Of a stretch of 64,000 nt of DNA, positions 3,400 through 64,000 are shown one piece after another (positions within the stretch are counted from its first letter, which is position 1; every line of letters begins with the position of its first letter). The notes below the pieces were generated by a model. The model ran no database searches, had not been told where the DNA came from, and saw only the letters and a list, made by a program, of their open reading frames with translations. A program made the translations under genes and the position numbers. Source of the DNA: Elusimicrobiota bacterium (GTDB taxonomy: Bacteria; Elusimicrobiota; Elusimicrobia; UBA1565); the NCBI GenBank assembly GCA_041660925.1, contig JBAZVI010000003.1:221832-285831 (forward strand), written 5' to 3'.

Positions 3400-6300
3400 C
3401 TAGTCGACGACGCTGAAGAGGTCTTCGGGCTGCGCCTGGAGGAGGCCGTCGGCGGCGAGGCGGTCGTACTGCGCGAGGAGGCCGGCGAAGAAGTCCCGGC
3501 CGACGAGGCGGATGTCCATCTTCGGCGCCTTGCCCCGGTACTTGTTGAGCGCGATGAGCCGGGTCGCTTCCTTGAGCGCGTCGGGGCCGGGCGTCACGAC
3601 GTAGGCGTCCCCTTCCCGGCGGACGGAGCTTCCCCCCGCCGCTTTGCGCTTCGCGGGCGCGATCTTGAGCGGCGTCCCGACCAGGGCGAGGATCTCGTCG
3701 GCCGAGTCGACGACCGAGAAGAGCTCCTCGGGGCGGTGCGCGAGCAGGCCCTGCGCGTGGGCCCGTGCATACTGCTCGCTCAAGCCGCGGTAGTACTCCT
3801 TGCCGACGAGGATGATGCGCTTGGGCGCGGCGCCGAGGTCGTTGCCGTCGATGAGCGCCGAGACCTCCTCGAGCGACGAGGCGCCGCCGGGGAACAGGAG
3901 GAAGTGGTCCGAGGCCTTCGCGAACTGCCCGACGCGGGCGCTCTCGGACTCGGCGGTGCCGATGGCGCGGGAGCGGACGATGTCCTCGTCGCCCCAGGTC
4001 GGGATGCGGACGATGGCGAGGTTCTCCCCCGGCACGACGCCCTCGCGCGGCTTCTCCTGGGAGCCGACGGCCGCGGCCTCGAAGGCCGCGCCCATGACGC
4101 CGGCGTTCCCGCAGCCGGAGAGGATGTTGTAGCCGCGGGCGATGAGCTCGGCGGCCACCTTCGCCGCGACGGCCATGGCGGCGAGGATCTTCTCGTCGGT
4201 GCGCGAGCTGCCCAGCACGGTCACGGTCATCGCGCGCGAGGCGTGCGCTGCGTAGCGCTCGTCGAAGGCCGGGATGTCGGCGAAGGTCTTGGGGCGGGGC
4301 GCGTCCACGGAGGGCCTCCAGGCGCCGGTCTTCCAGGCGGCCTTCACGCGGTCGGCGGCGGCCCACCACGCGTCGAGCGATTCCCAGCGGCCGGTCTTCG
4401 CGTCTTTCTCGACGGGGACCGAGAGGGTCTCCACGGCGAAGCGCGGGTCTGCGAGCGAGCCGCCCAGCTCGGCCAGGTCCCAGACGAGCTCCTTCTCTCG
4501 GATGCGGTCCCAAGCCCGCCAGCCGGTCCAGATGTAGGCGCGGTTCTCCATCACGCGCAGGTATTCGTCCGTGTCCGCCGGGCGGCCGAGGATGTCCTTC
4601 GGGCGCTTCGCGATGAGCGCTTTGTTCAGCGGCAGGCGCATCTTCACGAGGGTCAGCGTGCGCGGGGTGGCCCAGGAGATCTGGCGGGTGAGGTAGCTGA
4701 GGGCCGTCTTGGGGTCGAGCGTCGTGAAGATATGGGAGCCGAAGCGGCCCGCTTCGTCGGGCTCGGCGTAGTCGTCGTAGTGCATGTCGCCCATCGTGCC
4801 CGAGGCCTTGGCCGAGTTCAGGCCGCCGCGCAGGCCGCGATAGACCGTCACGTAGGGTTCGCCGTCGACGTATTCGATGCGGGTCGGGGAGAAGGGGAGG
4901 AGGAAGCGGAGGGAGGGGCCGGCGGGCGTCTTGAGAGCGGCCTGTTCGGGCGGCGCGGGTCCGGATCTCGACGCGCCCTTGCGCATCAGAAGGCCGATCG
5001 TGAGCGCGGCGAGCGCGCTGACCGCGACGTTGACGCCGAAGAGGATGGCCGGCATCGTGAGCACGGCGCCCACGGCAGGGAAGAGGCGCGAGGCGCTCAC
5101 GGCCATGAAGATGGGCAGCATCGCGGCGATGCTCGCCGTCATCATCCACTTCGAGAGGTTGCGGTACTTGTCCTGGGGGAGCTTCTCGGAGTAGTAGGTC
5201 ATCCACTTGTTCGAGTTGATGGTGATGAGCCCGCCCAGGAGCCCCGCCAGCGCGAAGGTGAGCATCGGCAGTTGGAGGAAGGTGGACCAGACGAAGGCGG
5301 TCGCCGCGAGCGCGCCGAGCACGGTCCAGCCCTTGCGGCCCAGCGCCTTCTCGGGCAGGAAGGCGAGGGTGGCGAGCAGGCCCGCGAGCCAGCTCCCCCC
5401 GTCGTAGAGTCCGATCATCGTCCCGGCGGCCGAGGGCGCCGAGAACACGCTCAGCGCCAGCACCGTCGCGAGCACGCCGTAGACCATGAAGTGCATGAAG
5501 CGGAAGAAGGCGTAGGGCAGGTACTCCCCCCAGGAGAGCCGGGAGCCTTCCTGCGCCGAAGGCTTCGACTCGGCCCCCTCCTTGGGCGCGGGAGCGGGCT
5601 TCGTCCAGGGCTCCTTGAACTTGAGGGAGGCGTAAAGAGCCGTCGAGAGGCCGATGCCGATGCTCGAGACCACCATCATCGCCGGTCCGCCCAGGAGGTT
5701 GAGCAGCGGCACCGCGGCGAAGAGGGCCATGACGATGCAGGCGACCTCGACCCACTGGTAGGCGTAGTTGAGGCCGAGCTCGAGCTTCGCGGGGTTCTGG
5801 TTGCCGATGATCATGCGCGGAAGGAGGTTCTCGGCGACGCCGCGGTTGACGCCGTAGACGAGGCCGCCGACGATGGAGTTGGCGAGGAAGAGCCCGAACA
5901 TCACGGCGTTCGTCGCTCCGAGCGCCGCGGCGATGGGGATGGGGAGGCCGGAGACGGCGAGCGCGAGGATGGCGGCGACGTTGACCCACTTCGGGTTGAA
6001 GCGGGCCATGAAGGCCGAGCCCATCCAGGCGCCGGCGACGCGCATGACGTAGCCGATGCCCGCGATCATGAGCGCGGCGGGCAGGCCGAAGAGCGATGCG
6101 GTGAACAGCGGCAGGGCCACCGCCTGCACCTCCTGCGCCATCGCGTTGACGGTCCAGGCCGGGACGAACCCGAGGTGGAAGGAGCGCGGCAGCATGCGCA
6201 GGCGGCCGAGGGCGCCCGCGCGCTGGAAGTCGATGCGGTCGACCCAGTCCTCGGCGAGGGTGCGGCCCTCGCTCGAATCGTGGCCGTAGAGTCCGTCCTG

Positions 6301-8295
6301 GACGACGATCCGGCCGTTCTCCGTATCGATCTCGAAGCGCACGCCCTTGAGGAGCTCGTAGAGGCGGTCGCGCGCGGAGGCCTCGTCCTTGCCGCGGACG
6401 GTGATGTTGCCGAGGAGGTCGCCCTCGCCGACCTTGGCGCCCGGCTGGAGGAAGAGCTCGGAGAGGAAGACGGCTCCCCCCTCCTTCGGGAGGCCCTGCA
6501 CGCTCTTGAGCGTGCCGGCGGCCTTCGCGATGAAGAAGCGGTGCTGGAGGAGGACCGGCTCGCCGCGCGGCTCGGGGCGGCTCTCGAGCGAGAAGGCCGC
6601 GAGCAGGCCCTCGCGCATGACGTCCACCCCGTAGGATTCCTTGAGGCTCGCCCAGATGTCGGCGCCGCCCATGCGGGCGTTGATCTCGACGATGGGCGCG
6701 GCGAGCTTCCCGCCCACCAGCGTGAGGATGGCCTCGACGTGCGCGTTGCCGGTCTTGAGGCCGACGGCGTCGAGGGACTTGAGGGCCTGGGCGCGGGCGA
6801 GCTCTTCCATCTCCTTCGGCAGCCGCAGGCCGTAGGTCGTGCCGCGCTCCTGGTTCCCGAGGGCGGGCGGGTTGTAGCTCACGGAGGTGAAGACGGCCTT
6901 GCCTTCGCGCACGACGACCTCGACATCGGTCATGAGCCCGTCGGGGATCTGCGCCTCGAAGAGCACCGGGGGCTTCTCGTCGACCTGCTTGCTGCGGGCC
7001 TTGCGCGGGTCCGTGCGGGCGAGCTCGTCGATCTTCCCCTCGATGTCGCGGAAGGCGGCCTCGGCGGCCTCCGGGCTGTCGATGTCCAGCGTCACGCCCC
7101 AGCCGCCGCCGCCCGAGTCGGGCTTGGCCACGGCCTTCTCGAAGCCGGCGGCCTTGATCTTCTTGAAGGCCTCGCGGGCCTCGGCCGCGCTGTGCGCCTG
7201 GAAGGCGGGCAGGTGGAGGCTCGGGTCGCCGTAGGCGTTCATGAGTTCGCGGGCCCGGATCTTCGAATGCGCGGCGCTCACGGCCTCCGGCGAGAAGCCG
7301 GGGACCCCGAGCCCCTCGGCCAGTTCGGCCTCGAGCTGGGCGTAGGCGTTGAGGTAGGTCTTCACCGCGTCGATGCGGCGGGTCTTCGCGATGCCCTTCG
7401 CCTGCTCCACGATCGCGCGCAGGTTGTCGGCGGAGTGGCCGCCGACGTCGGCGGAGTAGTAGTTGCCGGGGAGGATCCCCTTCGAGACGGCGAAGTCCTT
7501 CTGGTCCGGGTAGCCGAGGACGAGGAGCTCGAAGCCGAGCTCTTTCGAGAGCGCCGCCATGTGCTCGTAGAGGTAGTCGCGGCCGCCGACCTTGGAGACG
7601 ACGTAGAGCAAGGATTTCCCCGCGAGCGGCTTGTCCGCGGGCAAGGCCGGGGACAGCGAGGAGCGCTTCCGCCCGTTCGTGCCCGAGACATCGAGGACAG
7701 GCTCTTCGGTGGAGCCTGTCCTTCCGCGGCCTTCGAAGAGAAGTCCGGTCGCCGCGCGGGTCTTCTCCGTCCCCGCGCCGGGCTCGGCGAGGGTCTCGGA
7801 GACCTCGGTCTGGCCGGTCTTCGTCGTTTCAAGGACGGAGACCGGAGCCTTCTTGTCGGAGGAGGCCTTGGCGGGAAGGATCGCGTCCTTCGCCGGGAGC
7901 GGGAGGGACTTCGATGCTTCGGCTGCCGGGATGATCGCGGCGTTCGCGGCCGGGGTCTTGAGGGTCGCAGCGGCCGCGGCGCTCTGGACCGTCGGCTGGA
8001 CGGAGGGCGGGGTCGGGAGGGCGAGCCCGTTGGTGAGCGGCGCGATGTTCGGAGCCGCGAGCGGTGCGAGCTGGACCGACGGCGCGACCGCGGTCGGTAC
8101 GACGGGGGTCCCCGCGGTCGTCGCCGATTGGGCGGAGCTGGCCGCGGCCTGACAGAACGCCTCCCCTGATAAGGAAAGGACCAGGCAGGCCGAGAGGAGC
8201 GCGGCGAAGCCCTTCTTCAGTTCACGCACGATATGAAGGATAGCCCCCCGCCCGGATTCCAGCAAGGGGTCGAAGGGGCAGGGAGCATGGGCCAT
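3400..8295 (-). CDS. Giant multidomain fusion protein: N-terminal hydrophobic segment + Ala/Pro/Thr-rich linker, ATP-grasp ligase domain, 12-TM MFS transporter domain, unknown domain (about 250 aa), LOG-family (TIGR00730-like) domain, partially duplicated LOG C-terminal segment
   Basis: A single uninterrupted 1631-codon frame. ATP-grasp motifs AVAKPDSGGGGWGVTL and EINARMGGA. Long hydrophobic block with MFS-like helices. LOG motifs VTVLGSSR, GCGNAGVMGA and PGGASSLEEV. The opposite-strand 1477-aa and 892-aa ORFs are compositional junk. Confidence 0.6.
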   Translation of the reverse strand: MAHAPCPFDPLLESGRGAILHIVRELKKGFAALLSACLVLSLSGEAFCQAAASSAQSATTAGTPVVPTAVAPSVQLAPLAAPNIAPLTNGLALPTPPSVQPTVQSAAAAATLKTPAANAAIIPAAEASKSLPLPAKDAILPAKASSDKKAPVSVLETTKTGQTEVSETLAEPGAGTEKTRAATGLLFEGRGRTGSTEEPVLDVSGTNGRKRSSLSPALPADKPLAGKSLLYVVSKVGGRDYLYEHMAALSKELGFELLVLGYPDQKDFAVSKGILPGNYYSADVGGHSADNLRAIVEQAKGIAKTRRIDAVKTYLNAYAQLEAELAEGLGVPGFSPEAVSAAHSKIRARELMNAYGDPSLHLPAFQAHSAAEAREAFKKIKAAGFEKAVAKPDSGGGGWGVTLDIDSPEAAEAAFRDIEGKIDELARTDPRKARSKQVDEKPPVLFEAQIPDGLMTDVEVVVREGKAVFTSVSYNPPALGNQERGTTYGLRLPKEMEELARAQALKSLDAVGLKTGNAHVEAILTLVGGKLAAPIVEINARMGGADIWASLKESYGVDVMREGLLAAFSLESRPEPRGEPVLLQHRFFIAKAAGTLKSVQGLPKEGGAVFLSELFLQPGAKVGEGDLLGNITVRGKDEASARDRLYELLKGVRFEIDTENGRIVVQDGLYGHDSSEGRTLAEDWVDRIDFQRAGALGRLRMLPRSFHLGFVPAWTVNAMAQEVQAVALPLFTASLFGLPAALMIAGIGYVMRVAGAWMGSAFMARFNPKWVNVAAILALAVSGLPIPIAAALGATNAVMFGLFLANSIVGGLVYGVNRGVAENLLPRMIIGNQNPAKLELGLNYAYQWVEVACIVMALFAAVPLLNLLGGPAMMVVSSIGIGLSTALYASLKFKEPWTKPAPAPKEGAESKPSAQEGSRLSWGEYLPYAFFRFMHFMVYGVLATVLALSVFSAPSAAGTMIGLYDGGSWLAGLLATLAFLPEKALGRKGWTVLGALAATAFVWSTFLQLPMLTFALAGLLGGLITINSNKWMTYYSEKLPQDKYRNLSKWMMTASIAAMLPIFMAVSASRLFPAVGAVLTMPAILFGVNVAVSALAALTIGLLMRKGASRSGPAPPEQAALKTPAGPSLRFLLPFSPTRIEYVDGEPYVTVYRGLRGGLNSAKASGTMGDMHYDDYAEPDEAGRFGSHIFTTLDPKTALSYLTRQISWATPRTLTLVKMRLPLNKALIAKRPKDILGRPADTDEYLRVMENRAYIWTGWRAWDRIREKELVWDLAELGGSLADPRFAVETLSVPVEKDAKTGRWESLDAWWAAADRVKAAWKTGAWRPSVDAPRPKTFADIPAFDERYAAHASRAMTVTVLGSSRTDEKILAAMAVAAKVAAELIARGYNILSGCGNAGVMGAAFEAAAVGSQEKPREGVVPGENLAIVRIPTWGDEDIVRSRAIGTAESESARVGQFAKASDHFLLFPGGASSLEEVSALIDGNDLGAAPKRIILVGKEYYRGLSEQYARAHAQGLLAHRPEELFSVVDSADEILALVGTPLKIAPAKRKAAGGSSVRREGDAYVVTPGPDALKEATRLIALNKYRGKAPKMDIRLVGRDFFAGLLAQYDRLAADGLLQAQPEDLFSVVD

Positions 8296-8370
8296 AGGGT
8301 CTATGCATAAACGTTCCCATTGTGCCTGTTCCCCGCAGCGAAACGTGAAAGGTGTGGGGCAGCCCCCTCT

Positions 8371-8781: not shown

Positions 8782-10718
<1,937 letters not shown>

Positions 10719-10730
10719 GTCGGTCTCCCC

Positions 10731-10759
10731 GTCGGGAATCCTTGACGGGGATTCCCGAC
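10731..10759. repeat. Palindromic element GTCGGGAATCC-ttgacgg-GGATTCCCGAC (11-bp perfect arms); second copy at 47021..47048
   Basis: Read directly from the sequence; it sits 13 nt upstream of the OPT start codon and downstream of the receiver gene stop. Confidence 0.7.
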
Positions 10760-10839
10760 CTGTCTACAAAAGTTGTTTCCGGCGCCTGGAATGACTTGCT
10801 GAAACCGTCCTGCGAAACGCCGCTGCGTTTCGCAGGCTA

Positions 10840-11244
10840 TTATACACCGTCTCCCTTCCTCTCCGGCGGCGCCGTGAGCAGCTCGCGGATGCGGCCGAGG
10901 AGCTGCTCGGGCGTGAAGGGCTTGGAGATCCACGCGTCCCCGCCCGCGCTGACGCTCTCCTTGAAGGACTCCTCGGGGTTCATGGCGGTCATGAAGAGCA
11001 CCGGGGTCGTCCGCGTCTCCGCGCGCTCGCGCAGTTGCCGGCAGACCTCGAAGCCGCTGATGCCGGGCAGGAGGATGTCGAGGAGGATGAGGGCCGGGCG
11101 CAGCGCGACGGCGCGCTCGAGGGTGTCCTCCCCGTAGGCGAGGGGCTGGACGCGGTAGTCGTTCTTCAGGGTCCCCGCGAGGGCCTCGCGGATCCCCAGG
11201 TCGTCGTCGATGACGAGGATGAGGGGGCGGATGTCGTCGTTCAT
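10840..11244 (-). CDS. Single-domain response regulator (CheY-like receiver, 134 aa)
   Basis: C-terminal part of ORF 10840..13134 reads MNDDIRPLILVIDDD..LILLDILLPGISG..SKPF; ATG overlaps the stop of the radical SAM gene (ATGA). Confidence 0.8.
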   Translation of the reverse strand: MNDDIRPLILVIDDDLGIREALAGTLKNDYRVQPLAYGEDTLERAVALRPALILLDILLPGISGFEVCRQLRERAETRTTPVLFMTAMNPEESFKESVSAGGDAWISKPFTPEQLLGRIRELLTAPPERKGDGV

Positions 11245-13028
11245 GCGGCCTCCTTCCCCGCGCGGACGCGGGGTCTGAGCACGCGCCGGTAGCGCGTTTT
11301 GACGGCGTTGGACGGCGAGAGGAACTGGTCGGAGCCGAAGGGCTTGAAGCGGCGGGTCGCCAGGCGCACGAGGCGCGAGATGACGCCCTTGCGCGCGTGG
11401 CCGAAGACGGAGTAGAGGAACATCAGGAGCTCGATGTGGACGCTGTCCACCTCGAGGGTCGGCTGGATGCGCTCGAGCGTCTCGGTGACCGCGCGCGTCG
11501 AGTCCATGATCTGGCGGTCCTTCGCCTCCCAGGAGAGCCCCCCCACCTCGTCGAAGCGCTCGGAGTAGGCGCTGACGAACTCGTCGGCGGAGAACGGGTC
11601 GAGGGCGCCGGCCGGCGCCGGACGCAGGGACACGCCGAAGCGCCCCGGGGTGCGGTAGAGCGGCGAGCCGGGGTAGAGGTAGAAAGGGTTGAGAGAGTGC
11701 ACGTCGATGCAGTCGCGGTGCTCCTCGAGGAAGCGCACGGTGTCCGCGACGTCCGCGGGGGTCTCCGTGGGCAGGCCGCCGATGATCTCGATGTGGTTCC
11801 AGATCCCCAGCGCGTGGGAGCGGCGCAGGAAGCGCGAGGCGCGCTCGGGGGTCGTCCCCTTGCGGATGTAGCGCAGCAGGCGCGCGCTGCCCGTCTCGAG
11901 CCCGAAGGTCAGCTTCACCGCGCCCGATTCCCGCATCTTCTCGAGGAGGCGTTCGTCGAGCTGGCGGAAGTTCACGCAGTCGCACCACTGCAGGCCGAGC
12001 CGCGCGCGGACCATGCGCCCGCAGAGCTCGAGGGCGAAGTCGTAGTGGTTGTTGAAGTTCGCGTTGATGAAGTAGACGCCGGTGGCGCCCTGGTCCTTGA
12101 GCGCGCGCAGGTGCTCGACGACCTCGGCCGGGGTGCGGCGGTCGCTGCGGGTCTGGCTCGAGCAGAAGATGCACTGCCCCGCGCAGTGGGACTCGAAGCG
12201 GCTCATGAGCACGAGCTGCTCCCTGCCCCCGTGCTCGGCGAGGAGGCGGCGGAAGGCGGGGCCGGAGGCGTTGTAGCTCGCCAGGATGCGCCGCCCCGTG
12301 CGCCGGTAGAGCTCGAGCGGGTAGCCGCGGTAGTCGGGGAAGGTCAGCGGCGGATAGTGGCCCTGCATGACGCCCTTGAGGACGCGGCCCGAGGACGTAC
12401 GGCGGTAGACGTTGAAGGGCAGGCGGCGCTCGCGCTCGACGACGGCGTGCGCGAGCTGCTCGAGCTCGCGCTCTCCCTGGATGACGACGGCGTAGTCGAA
12501 GCAGGGATAGTCGCGCAGGATCTCGTAGTAGAGCTGCTTGGAGACGTCCTTGTGCCCGATGACGACCGGCTTGCCCGTGCGCCGGCGGATCTCGTCGGCG
12601 AGGAGCGCGGCCGCGTTGAGCAGGAACGGCGTCTTGAGGTCGGCCAGGGTGAGGCCGTAGAGGTCGGCCTCGGGAAGGGCGTCGCAGAGCGGCGCGAGGG
12701 CCGCGGCGGCCGCCTCGAGGGAACGGGCGCCCTTTCCCTTGAGCTTCCCGGAGAGCCACCGGGCGACCGCGTGCGGGTCGCGCAGCAGCGAGAAGTCGGT
12801 CCAGGGGTGCGCCGGCTTCACCTTGAGATGGAAGGGCACGTCGAAGTCGTGGAGCGTCGTGTCGATGCGCTTGCGGCGCAGGTGGGCCGCCAGCGTCGGG
12901 ATCGAGATGTTCGGGACGGGGAAGCACTCGTTGTTGCGCGTCTCGGCCGGCGGGACGATGAGCGCGACTCTCGCCCTGCGCGGGCGGTCCGCGGACGCTT
13001 TCTCCCGCGCCGGGCGACCGTGTGCCAT
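11241..13028 (-). CDS. B12-binding-domain radical SAM protein (595 aa)
   Basis: N-terminal B12-binding-like region (RVALIVPP..) followed by the CxxxCxxC radical SAM cluster motif (CAGQCIFCS) and a TIM-barrel-like remainder. Confidence 0.8.
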   Translation of the reverse strand: MAHGRPAREKASADRPRRARVALIVPPAETRNNECFPVPNISIPTLAAHLRRKRIDTTLHDFDVPFHLKVKPAHPWTDFSLLRDPHAVARWLSGKLKGKGARSLEAAAAALAPLCDALPEADLYGLTLADLKTPFLLNAAALLADEIRRRTGKPVVIGHKDVSKQLYYEILRDYPCFDYAVVIQGERELEQLAHAVVERERRLPFNVYRRTSSGRVLKGVMQGHYPPLTFPDYRGYPLELYRRTGRRILASYNASGPAFRRLLAEHGGREQLVLMSRFESHCAGQCIFCSSQTRSDRRTPAEVVEHLRALKDQGATGVYFINANFNNHYDFALELCGRMVRARLGLQWCDCVNFRQLDERLLEKMRESGAVKLTFGLETGSARLLRYIRKGTTPERASRFLRRSHALGIWNHIEIIGGLPTETPADVADTVRFLEEHRDCIDVHSLNPFYLYPGSPLYRTPGRFGVSLRPAPAGALDPFSADEFVSAYSERFDEVGGLSWEAKDRQIMDSTRAVTETLERIQPTLEVDSVHIELLMFLYSVFGHARKGVISRLVRLATRRFKPFGSDQFLSPSNAVKTRYRRVLRPRVRAGKEAA

Positions 13029-56950: not shown

Positions 56951-57091
56951 CGGGTTTCCCTATTGCCTCCCCCCACGGGGGAGGGTGGGGAGAGGGGCAT
57001 TTGGGTTTAGGAGGAGGATAGCGGGCCGCAAGGCGCCATGATTCGCCCCCCCCACCCTGCCCTCCCCCCGCAGGGGAGGAAATAGGGAAAC
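56951..57091. repeat. Composite inverted-repeat structure: two local hairpins (CCTCCCCCC..GGGGGAGG) bracketed by long-range complementary arms GTTTCCCTATT / AATAGGGAAAC
   Basis: About 38-nt imperfect arms (about 85% identity) separated by about 58 nt, in the divergent spacer before the S8 protease gene. Confidence 0.5.
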
Positions 57092-62654: not shown

Positions 62655-63587
62655 TCAGACCTCGGAGGGGTCGTGTTCGCGGTGCGACTGCACGGTGTGG
62701 CGGTGGTGAGCGATGGGCATGCCGTTGCGCCGCCAGTAGCTGCGGATGGCCCCCCAGGCCTCTTCGGCGGTGTCCACGGTCTGCACGAGGTCCAGGTCTC
62801 CGGGCGAGATGACGCCCTGCTCGGAGAGGTACTTCACGTCGATGACCCGCGACCAGAACTCCCGCCCGACGAGGATGACGGGGAGCTGGGACTTCTTGCT
62901 CGTCTGCACGAGGGTCAGAGTCTCGAAGAGCTCGTCGAAGGTCCCGAAGCCGCCGGGGAACGCGACCATCGCCTTCGCGCGCATGAGGAAGTGCATCTTG
63001 CGGATGGCGAAATAGTGGAACAGGAAGGAGAGCTCGGGCGTGACGAAGGGGTTGGGCTCCTGCTCGTGCGGGAGGGTGATGTTGAGCCCGATGCTCTTCC
63101 CCCCCGCCTCCCACGCTCCGCGGTTGGCCGCTTCCATGATGCCGGGGCCTCCCCCGGTGACCATGACGAAGTGGCGGCGTCCCTTCCCCTGGGAGGCCTT
63201 CGTGACGATGTAGCTGAAGCGTCGGGCCTCGTCATAATAGCGGGAGAGCTTCTGCAGGCGCTTGGCCGCGTCGAGCTCCGTGCGCAGGCGCGCATCGCGG
63301 GGCAGGCGCTTGAGCGCCGCGCCCAGCTTCGCGATCTGGGCCTCCGCTTCGTCGGGAGGCTGGATGCGCGCGCTGCCGAAGACGATGATGGTGGACTCGA
63401 TCTTGTTCTCGATGAGGACCATCTCGGGCTTGAGCAGCTCGAGCTGCAGGCGCATGGGGCGCAGCTCCTCGCGGGCGAGGAAGTCGATGTCCTGATAGGC
63501 CTTCCGGTAGGTGCGGGAGGCTCGGAGATCGTCGAGCATCTTGCGGCGCTGCTGGGGGGTGATCTTCACGGCTTTCATGTCGTCCAT
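62655..63587 (-). CDS. LOG-family protein (TIGR00730, cytokinin riboside 5'-monophosphate phosphoribohydrolase / PpnN-like nucleotide nucleosidase)
   Basis: GGGPGIMEA and PGGFGTFDEL motifs; 310 aa. Confidence 0.8.
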   Translation of the reverse strand: MDDMKAVKITPQQRRKMLDDLRASRTYRKAYQDIDFLAREELRPMRLQLELLKPEMVLIENKIESTIIVFGSARIQPPDEAEAQIAKLGAALKRLPRDARLRTELDAAKRLQKLSRYYDEARRFSYIVTKASQGKGRRHFVMVTGGGPGIMEAANRGAWEAGGKSIGLNITLPHEQEPNPFVTPELSFLFHYFAIRKMHFLMRAKAMVAFPGGFGTFDELFETLTLVQTSKKSQLPVILVGREFWSRVIDVKYLSEQGVISPGDLDLVQTVDTAEEAWGAIRSYWRRNGMPIAHHRHTVQSHREHDPSEV

Positions 63588-63618
63588 TGGGGGTCTCGCT
63601 CCGTCACGGCGATTTCGG

Positions 63619-63924
63619 GTGCACGGACCGGGTAATTATGCACGTTTTGGCCGGGCGATTTCGGCCGCCCGGCAAGGCGCAAGGAGCGAGGATACCTTGA
63701 GGTATCTGAGCGACGCGCAACGCCGCCGGCGGCTGAAAGCGCCCGAGCCTGCGCAAGGAAGCTTCTCCGTCGGAGACAGCGGAACGACTGCCGAGGCCCT
63801 CCCCTGGGCGGCTTCCGCGTCGCTCCTCCCTCAGATAGCTCTGGCCGCTATCCTCGGTCATCGCTCCTTGAATCCGCATCAGGCTCGGGCCTCCAAAACG
63901 CGCATAATTACCCGGTCAGTGCAC
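63619..63924. mobile_element. MITE-like element or large structured RNA: 306 bp bounded by 32-bp terminal inverted repeats (30/32 identical), with no transposase
   Basis: Left GTGCACGGACCGGGTAATTATGCACGTTTTGG. Right CCAAAACGCGCATAATTACCCGGTCAGTGCAC. Internal hairpin GGCCGGGCG..CGGCCGCCCGGC. Internal ORFs (91 and 138 aa) look spurious. Confidence 0.4.
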
Positions 63925-64000
63925 TAGGCACAGGCTCAGCCCGGGGGCGTAGGTCACGGCCAGAAGCACGAGCGCATGGATCAGCCAGAACGGCGTCACG
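63916..64000 (-). CDS. C-terminal end of a membrane protein whose gene continues beyond the window (..VTPFWLIHALVLLAVTYAPGLSLCLVH*)
   Basis: Open hydrophobic reading frame to the window edge; its TGA stop lies inside the right inverted repeat of the MITE-like element. Confidence 0.3.
   Translation of the reverse strand, partial: VTPFWLIHALVLLAVTYAPGLSLCLVH

Follow-up and report, generated by a model that had tools for sequence, protein, structure and literature searches.

A probable MITE-like element family with covarying hairpin modules at a dctM–LOG operon junction in high-GC Elusimicrobiota

Near one end of a 64,000-nt stretch of DNA from an Elusimicrobiota bacterium, which was analyzed as a whole and is called the window below, a 306-bp segment bounded by long inverted repeats separates the dctM gene from a LOG-family gene. 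A first-pass annotation, made from the letters alone, had read this segment either as a non-autonomous transposable element or as a large cis-regulatory RNA structure of the LOG gene, and the locus raises the question of which of these it is, or whether it is something else. Its arms occupy positions 63619–63650 (left, LOG-proximal, GTGCACGGACCGGGTAATTATGCACGTTTTGG) and 63893–63924 (right, dctM-proximal, CCAAAACGCGCATAATTACCCGGTCAGTGCAC); they are 32 nt each, lie 242 nt apart, and are complementary at 30 of 32 positions (94%), so both the coordinates and the arms described earlier are borne out. This is the sole long pair with >90% complementarity among the inverted repeats reported for the 64-kb window. 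The core 15-mer of the arms occurs twice in the window, in the two arms themselves (0.01 occurrences expected from shuffles), and a BLAST search of the element against the 64-kb window found no further copy. The element, hereafter e1, has a length that is a multiple of three and a GC content of 64.7% against 70.6% for the window; over its entire length, it shares 65% identity with its reverse complement.

The DNA of e1 is present base for base, in the same orientation, in ENA assembly ERZ27249449 (contig L002) and JGI assembly 3300014208 (contig L005), two independent metagenome assemblies from other samples. The LOG protein of the latter differs from that of the window by one residue. As the identical sequence was recovered in two independent assemblies, e1 is not an assembly artefact; it is real and fixed in its population.

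Both genes flanking e1 are on the minus strand, dctM upstream and LOG downstream. The 3′ end of dctM, which codes for a TRAP transporter large permease (63925–64000, minus strand), runs off the window, and its frame was extended with the identical contig L002; its homologues carry the Pfam domain PF06808 (DctM). The LOG gene, of the TIGR00730 family (62655–63587, minus strand; Pfam PF03641 and PF18306), has its closest homologues exclusively in Elusimicrobiota, the nearest one outside the population of e1 being 75% identical. The present dctM stop codon, a TGA at 63916–63918 on the minus strand, is derived from the element and lies inside the right arm, as had been noted: the translation of L002:1-201 ends in ...GLSLCLVH and a stop, and the terminal codons GTG CAC TGA (Val-His-stop) all come from this arm, which thus gives dctM its last two codons as well as its stop. 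On the other side of e1, the sequence CCG AAA TCG CCG TGA (63604–63618, minus strand), which reads P K S P stop, is a remnant of the tail that dctM had before the insertion. In-silico removal of the 306 bp joins this remnant in frame to the rest of the gene, giving ...GLSLCL(VH)PKSP and a stop 16 nt before the LOG ATG, a distance within the range of the relatives.

The gene order dctP-dctQ-dctM-LOG is kept in five Elusimicrobiota relatives, and the empty-site comparison proposed in the first-pass annotation could be made in all of them. The spacing from dctM to LOG is +16 nt in L003, −19 nt in L004, +36 nt in L011, −25 nt in L012, and +26 nt in L013 (a range of −25 to +36 nt), against 328 nt in the window. 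The DctM tails of the relatives (...LSLAIVQWRSP, ...LSLALLQWRSPG, and ...GLSLCLLSRKP, each followed by a stop) resemble the PKSP remnant, and more distant DctM fragments have 4–9 residues after the LSL motif. Since the orthologous site is empty in five syntenic relatives and an in-frame dctM tail remnant persists beyond the element, e1 is, on this comparison, a discrete segment inserted among the final codons of dctM, in an operon whose dctM and LOG genes otherwise adjoin or overlap. Read in the same way, the insertion cut four residues (PKSP) from the predicted DctM protein, gave it a new stop, and spared the ribosome-binding site of LOG. The likely site, a GGAG at 63599–63602 (minus strand), is intact and outside the element, 11 nt upstream of the ATG at 63587, which itself lies 31 nt from the end of e1.

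Some further features of this locus may be recorded here. The LOG start is ambiguous: the ATG at 63587, with the GGAG 11 nt upstream, gives a protein of 310 aa, and the alternative ATG at 63578 gives one of 307 aa, the version called by NCBI (P0121), whose start coincides with that of the L003 homologue in an alignment. A second LOG-type domain of the window is found at 3400–8370 (minus strand), where an ORF of ~1650 aa, an unusual fusion, carries a C-terminal LOG/SLOG-like domain (PF03641, PF18306) and a match to an L-amino-acid-ligase C-terminal domain that is below the Pfam gathering score. Finally, an exact 11-nt direct repeat, GGCGATTTCGG, occurs at 63608–63618, in the dctM tail remnant directly outside the left terminal repeat, and at 63654–63664, in the left half of the element 3 nt inside that repeat, within a hairpin module described below and conserved in a second copy of the element. 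It may be due to chance (roughly 0.01–0.05, an estimate) or to microhomology in the insertion.

We then looked at what e1 encodes. A search of its concatenated six-frame translation against a 5.8-billion-protein index gave no match. Its open frame, searched against 1.84 billion representative proteins, gave a single one, P0153 (77 aa, E 2.7e-17), which proved to be a spurious ORF inside another copy of the element. No frame of e1 matches a real protein, in agreement with the earlier view that it holds only spurious-looking ORFs and no transposase. A small-protein reading was rejected: frame +0 is open in e1 and in the copy carrying P0153 (e2), but it contains a stop in a third copy (e3), and the substitutions are not third-position-biased; no codon-position pattern was found among the differences between e1 and e2. 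Neither a sigma-70-like promoter nor an intrinsic terminator was predicted in e1. A CATAAT box in the repeat was considered as an outward promoter and discarded, as it has no acceptable −35 element and the promoter scan returned none. Rfam searches with e1 and with e2/e3 found nothing significant, the best hit having an E value of 0.24 and 18.3 bits against a gathering score of 36.5.

P0153 led to the other copies. It is encoded on contig Ga0376277_0001339 of JGI 3300037810 (locus L014), where the public gene call, a "hypothetical protein", spans 10001–10234. The element around it, e2 (L014:9923-10231, 309 bp), is 84% identical to e1 over the full length, has arms that are ~28/32 complementary (read from the alignment), and is flanked by two minus-strand genes, one for aspartate kinase and the other proC. 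BLAST of e1 and e2 against L014 found a third, diverged copy, e3 (L014:11481-11753, 273 bp), in the spacer that separates the aspartate kinase gene from a thrB-like GHMP-kinase gene, with arms of 40 nt that are 88% complementary. The left terminal repeat of e1 is homologous to the terminal repeats of e2 and e3. The search for further copies suggested by the first-pass annotation thus yielded two on L014 and none more in the window, and each of the three copies has its own, unrelated intercistronic site, the sites being spread over two contigs (dctM/LOG, aspartate kinase/proC, and thrB/aspartate kinase). Three is a lower bound, as the sequence covered was the window and L014.

The way the copies sit between their neighbors is the same at all three sites. 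Each starts at, or at most 2 nt from, the stop codon of the upstream gene or supplies that stop, and the distance from its other end to the start codon of the downstream gene is 12–31 nt, which leaves the ribosome-binding site undisturbed. The TAG stop of the aspartate kinase gene next to e2 is made of the flanking TA and the first G of the element. The outer parts of e3 are inverted relative to those of e1 and e2, and there is therefore no consistent orientation toward the flanking genes. Between e1 and e2, there are 47 substitutions, ~21 of which, with a 6-nt indel, fall in element positions 129–182; the right hairpin module differs at only 5 positions and by a 3-nt indel. On L014, e2 and e3 flank the aspartate kinase gene (10231–11463), 1.2 kb apart and with oppositely oriented outer parts, a composite-like arrangement within a seemingly native hom-thrC-thrB-ask-proC cluster.

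Searches in larger collections added no copy. The exact repeat-core pattern gave only a chance match in genome contigs (a Parafilimonas sigma-factor gene), only the e1 locus and three chance matches in metagenome contigs, and nothing in viral contigs, where the conserved-core pattern gave three short chance matches. These exact patterns are too strict to match even e2, itself in a JGI metagenome, and so their null results do not bound the copy number. A distant search of a plasmid collection returned chance matches only (E about 0.9). Another, unrelated palindromic element of ~140 bp was observed at 56954–57091 of the window, upstream of an S8 peptidase gene, and at 1236–1382 of L014. Its arms are 44–47 nt long and 80–81% complementary, and its ends read GTTTCCCTA...TAGGGAAAC; the L014 copy shares 48 nt at 87.5% identity over one arm and has the same architecture. 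It is probably a second MITE-like family common to both organisms.

The empty site and the dispersed copies bear on the two original readings. A large cis-regulatory RNA of LOG is not supported: the element is absent upstream of LOG in the relatives, the other copies precede proC and the aspartate kinase gene, and there is no Rfam match. According to the first-pass annotation, single-copy status with conserved synteny and supporting covariation would favor a regulatory RNA; what we found is dispersed copies and relatives without the element, though covariation is indeed strong (see below).

The same data weigh on an inverton, in which a site-specific recombinase would flip the 242-bp segment and cause phase-varying LOG expression. 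The geometry would fit, with 32-bp inverted repeats flanking a short segment directly upstream of a gene. However, a single orientation was seen in three assemblies from different samples (at the assembly level), the scan of window ORFs turned up no invertase or recombinase domain, and there is no promoter-like or terminator-like site inside the segment, which moreover sits in a former coding tail and recurs as a dispersed repeat at unrelated loci. We regard this explanation as highly improbable.

To look for the enzyme, the window ORFs with coding-like GC3 and the long ORFs in gaps were scanned. No transposase, recombinase, integrase, or invertase Pfam domain was found in these ORFs or in 20 kb of L014, no RAYT/Y1 transposase in these ORFs or in the L014 genes (about 84 kb of two host genomes), and no autonomous insertion sequence with matching ends in the same set of ORFs and genes.

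The insertion sites were compared next. The dinucleotides flanking the copies, read into the element, are GG and TA for e1, TA and TA for e2, and CG and AT for e3; a clean TA/TA duplication is thus seen in e2 only (1/3 copies), and e1 has TA on the dctM side only. Finding TA at 3 of the 6 ends is improbable by chance at 70.6% GC (roughly 2e-4, an estimate), and insertion probably targets TA dinucleotides. At 70% GC, TA is scarce and clusters at stop codons and in intercistronic spacers; such a preference would explain why the copies hug stop codons. The tip of the element, TA followed by GTGC..., may resemble Tc1-type ends, and a MITE derived from IS630/Tc1-mariner was considered. The tips vary between copies (GTGCAC, GTGCTC, and GCGCTG) but the two tips of any one copy can pair with each other. 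In classical cut-and-paste MITE families, the tips are usually constant, and the variation seen here points instead to recognition by structure or to arms that evolve in concert. The idea that GTGCAC is a palindromic target-site duplication was rejected, as the corresponding positions read GTGCTC/GAGCAC in e2 and GCGCTG/CAGCGC in e3, which are non-palindromic and mutually complementary. Direct repeats are known to decay in older MITEs (PMC10969869).

The three copies align end to end, and RNAalifold predicts a terminal stem of ~31 pairs around two long irregular hairpins and a variable centre. The first-pass annotation had described one strong local hairpin in the interior; the hairpin was confirmed, but it is one of two modules. 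The left module (63651–63746, plus strand) forms an irregular stem of ~97 nt that contains three tandem G·A mismatches and has GGATACC-TTGA-GGTATC at its apex. The right module (63793–63892, minus strand, or to 63893 if the first base of the right arm is included) is its counterpart on the other strand and aligns with the other five modules. The variable centre between them (63747–63792) is where the differences between e1 and e2 cluster and is mostly deleted in e3. Read on opposite strands (left on plus, right on minus), the two hairpins are therefore one module of ~97 nt, present six times in the three copies with a mean identity of 75%. A covariance model (R1) scored the left module of e1 at 95.6 bits and the right one at 95.0 bits (minus strand); run over 133 kb, it recovered no module beyond the six already known.

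Pairing in these modules is preserved through sequence change. Standard pairs fill 97.2% of the cells of the module alignment, and 18 of 30 pairs have changed on both sides; none of 500 shuffles was as good, and slid controls had at most 5 such pairs. In the terminal stem, 96.8% of the cells are paired, and 11 of 31 pairs have changed on both sides among the three copies and still pair (0/500 shuffles; at most 1 such pair in slid controls). The 7-bp apex stem shows two compensatory double changes between e1 and e2 (GGATACC...GGTATC against GCATAGC...GCTATG). The three tandem G·A/A·G mismatches of each module are invariant, and the surrounding Watson-Crick pairs vary. Compared with shuffled sequences, the folding of e1 has z scores of −6.3 and −6.7 for the RNA of the two strands, −9.4 for DNA, and −2.7 for the interior alone. 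Covariation of this kind, as read from the aligned copies, shows that folding matters to the element, and its conservation suggests that the element passes through a single-stranded DNA or RNA form that is important for its spread.

Strong covariation would also be compatible with a structured RNA with a host function, that is, an intercistronic processing, stabilizing, or insulating element that several operon junctions have taken up and that is under selection as RNA. The genes on either side of each copy point the same way, with a stop-adjacent start and an end 12–31 nt before the next start codon, and read-through transcription is expected, as no terminator was predicted. We nevertheless find such a function unlikely to account for the family. 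The element is absent from the dctM–LOG junction in five relatives and hence dispensable there, and the genes flanking the copies are functionally unrelated. Its near two-fold symmetry and the inverted outer parts of e3 indicate no strand preference, and the G·U/A·C asymmetry does not consistently favor the sense strand. The lack of an Rfam match also argues against it, and insertion into a coding tail is the behavior of mobile DNA.

A closer competitor is a REPIN-like or IS200/IS605-like element, mobilized as a folded single strand by a single-copy HUH/Y1-type (RAYT-like) enzyme or by another one that recognizes hairpins and not double-stranded terminal repeats; the family would then be a new REPIN-like class. 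It would account for Watson-Crick pairs that covary around invariant tandem G·A mismatches in six modules, for repeat tips that covary instead of staying conserved, and for the lack of a consistent target-site duplication; the copies also lie in extragenic spacers between co-directional genes, like REP/REPIN sequences (PMC3116915). Yet at 270–310 bp with terminal repeats of 32–40 nt, the element is not a doublet of short REP palindromes, and the arms are not themselves conserved palindromes. Scans of window ORFs and of the L014 genes (about 84 kb in all) gave no RAYT/Y1 match, and TA at 3 of the 6 ends better fits a TA-duplicating transposase. This reading seems rather unlikely to us. A bolder version, which we rate as doubtful but worth keeping in view, is that a folded single strand, of DNA or RNA, is the form in which the family spreads, through an enzyme recognizing the hairpin modules and the G·A "zipper" and not double-stranded terminal repeats; it would form a new REPIN-like class, perhaps co-opted as an intercistronic RNA processing or stabilizing module. 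REPIN-like single-strand recognition is kept open here because tips that covary, and hairpins whose G·A mismatches never change, are untypical of cut-and-paste MITEs.

To place the family, we compared it with known non-autonomous repeats. ERIC/IRU sequences of enterobacteria are likewise imperfect palindromes over the whole element and occur in transcribed intercistronic regions of operons; they have no sequence relation to e1, measure about 127 bp, and belong to a different phylum (see also PMC10969869). Correia elements duplicate TA, which flanks 3 of the 6 ends here. These elements of Neisseria (CREE/NEMIS) also consist of terminal inverted repeats around a short core, insert beside or between genes and are co-transcribed with them, and their paired repeats form a long double-stranded stem cleavable by RNase III (PMC2649163), as is predicted for e1; cleavage by RNase III at Correia repeats is documented (PMC2649163, PMC10969869). 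CREE, of which a genome has hundreds, are about 100–155 bp long with 26-bp repeats and contain IHF sites as well as promoter elements (PMC2649163). In comparison, e1 is twice as long, has two conserved hairpin modules and no promoter-like site, and shows no sequence similarity to them. REPINs are doublets of 20–40-nt REP palindromes, about 70–110 bp in total, and are tied to a RAYT gene (PMC3116915). They too are extragenic, hairpin-forming, and non-autonomous, and in both groups the structure is preserved by compensatory change, suggesting that a single strand is recognized (PMC3116915). The present family is set apart by its long terminal repeats and its pair of 97-nt modules, and neither the scanned window ORFs nor the genes of L014 included a RAYT.

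The nearest likeness is to bacterial MITEs such as QMITE2 of Coxiella and MITEAba12 (PMC10969869). The size (270–310 bp here), the 32–40-bp terminal inverted repeats, and the missing transposase agree, as do the GC content of e1 below that of the host, the location in intergenic spacers, the presence or absence between relatives, and the very stable stem-loop that would form if the element is transcribed. Differences are the three known copies, the clear target-site duplication in only one of them, the varying complementary tips, and the lack of a parent insertion sequence among the sequences searched.

Taken together, e1 is probably one copy of a non-autonomous, MITE-like mobile element family of high-GC Elusimicrobiota and not a locus-specific regulator. 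This MITE-like reading follows from the empty site in relatives, from the further copies elsewhere, and from the lack of a transposase, both in the element itself and among the window ORFs scanned. Of the two readings in the first-pass annotation, the transposable element is accordingly the one upheld, by an empty site in five relatives, copies at two unrelated sites, and no transposase in the window ORFs scanned. A MITE-like element of this kind would depend for its movement on an enzyme acting in trans, with its gene at another place in the genome, and that enzyme would recognize the terminal repeats, the folded hairpins, or both.

At the dctM–LOG junction, the insertion may have had consequences for the operon. 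The dctPQM-LOG transcript would now contain 300 nt folded into a rod or a Y, with a double-stranded stem of 32 bp, and the 300-nt spacer would be expected to break any translational coupling of dctM and LOG. The stem could act as an RNase III substrate or a 3′-end stabilizer, as described for Correia and ERIC elements; it is long enough to be a plausible substrate, for which the Correia repeats provide the precedent (PMC2649163, PMC10969869). Since the strong covariation shows that folding matters, a side effect on the operon at the RNA level is plausible.

These results document a MITE-like repeat family in Elusimicrobiota, a phylum for which a full-text search found no papers describing such elements. 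Bacterial MITEs and palindromic intergenic repeats are well known, and the e1 family leaves the current understanding of bacterial mobile DNA unchanged; what it adds is a new family with an unusually well-supported internal structure. Such elements cause spurious gene calls, as with P0153, and may fragment metagenome assemblies. The dctM–LOG junction offers a clean example of how an element can remodel an operon, with four codons lost, a new stop gained, and 300 nt of predicted stable structure placed between formerly coupled genes, and the covarying stems with their invariant G·A mismatches would provide a handle for finding the enzyme or factor that recognizes them.
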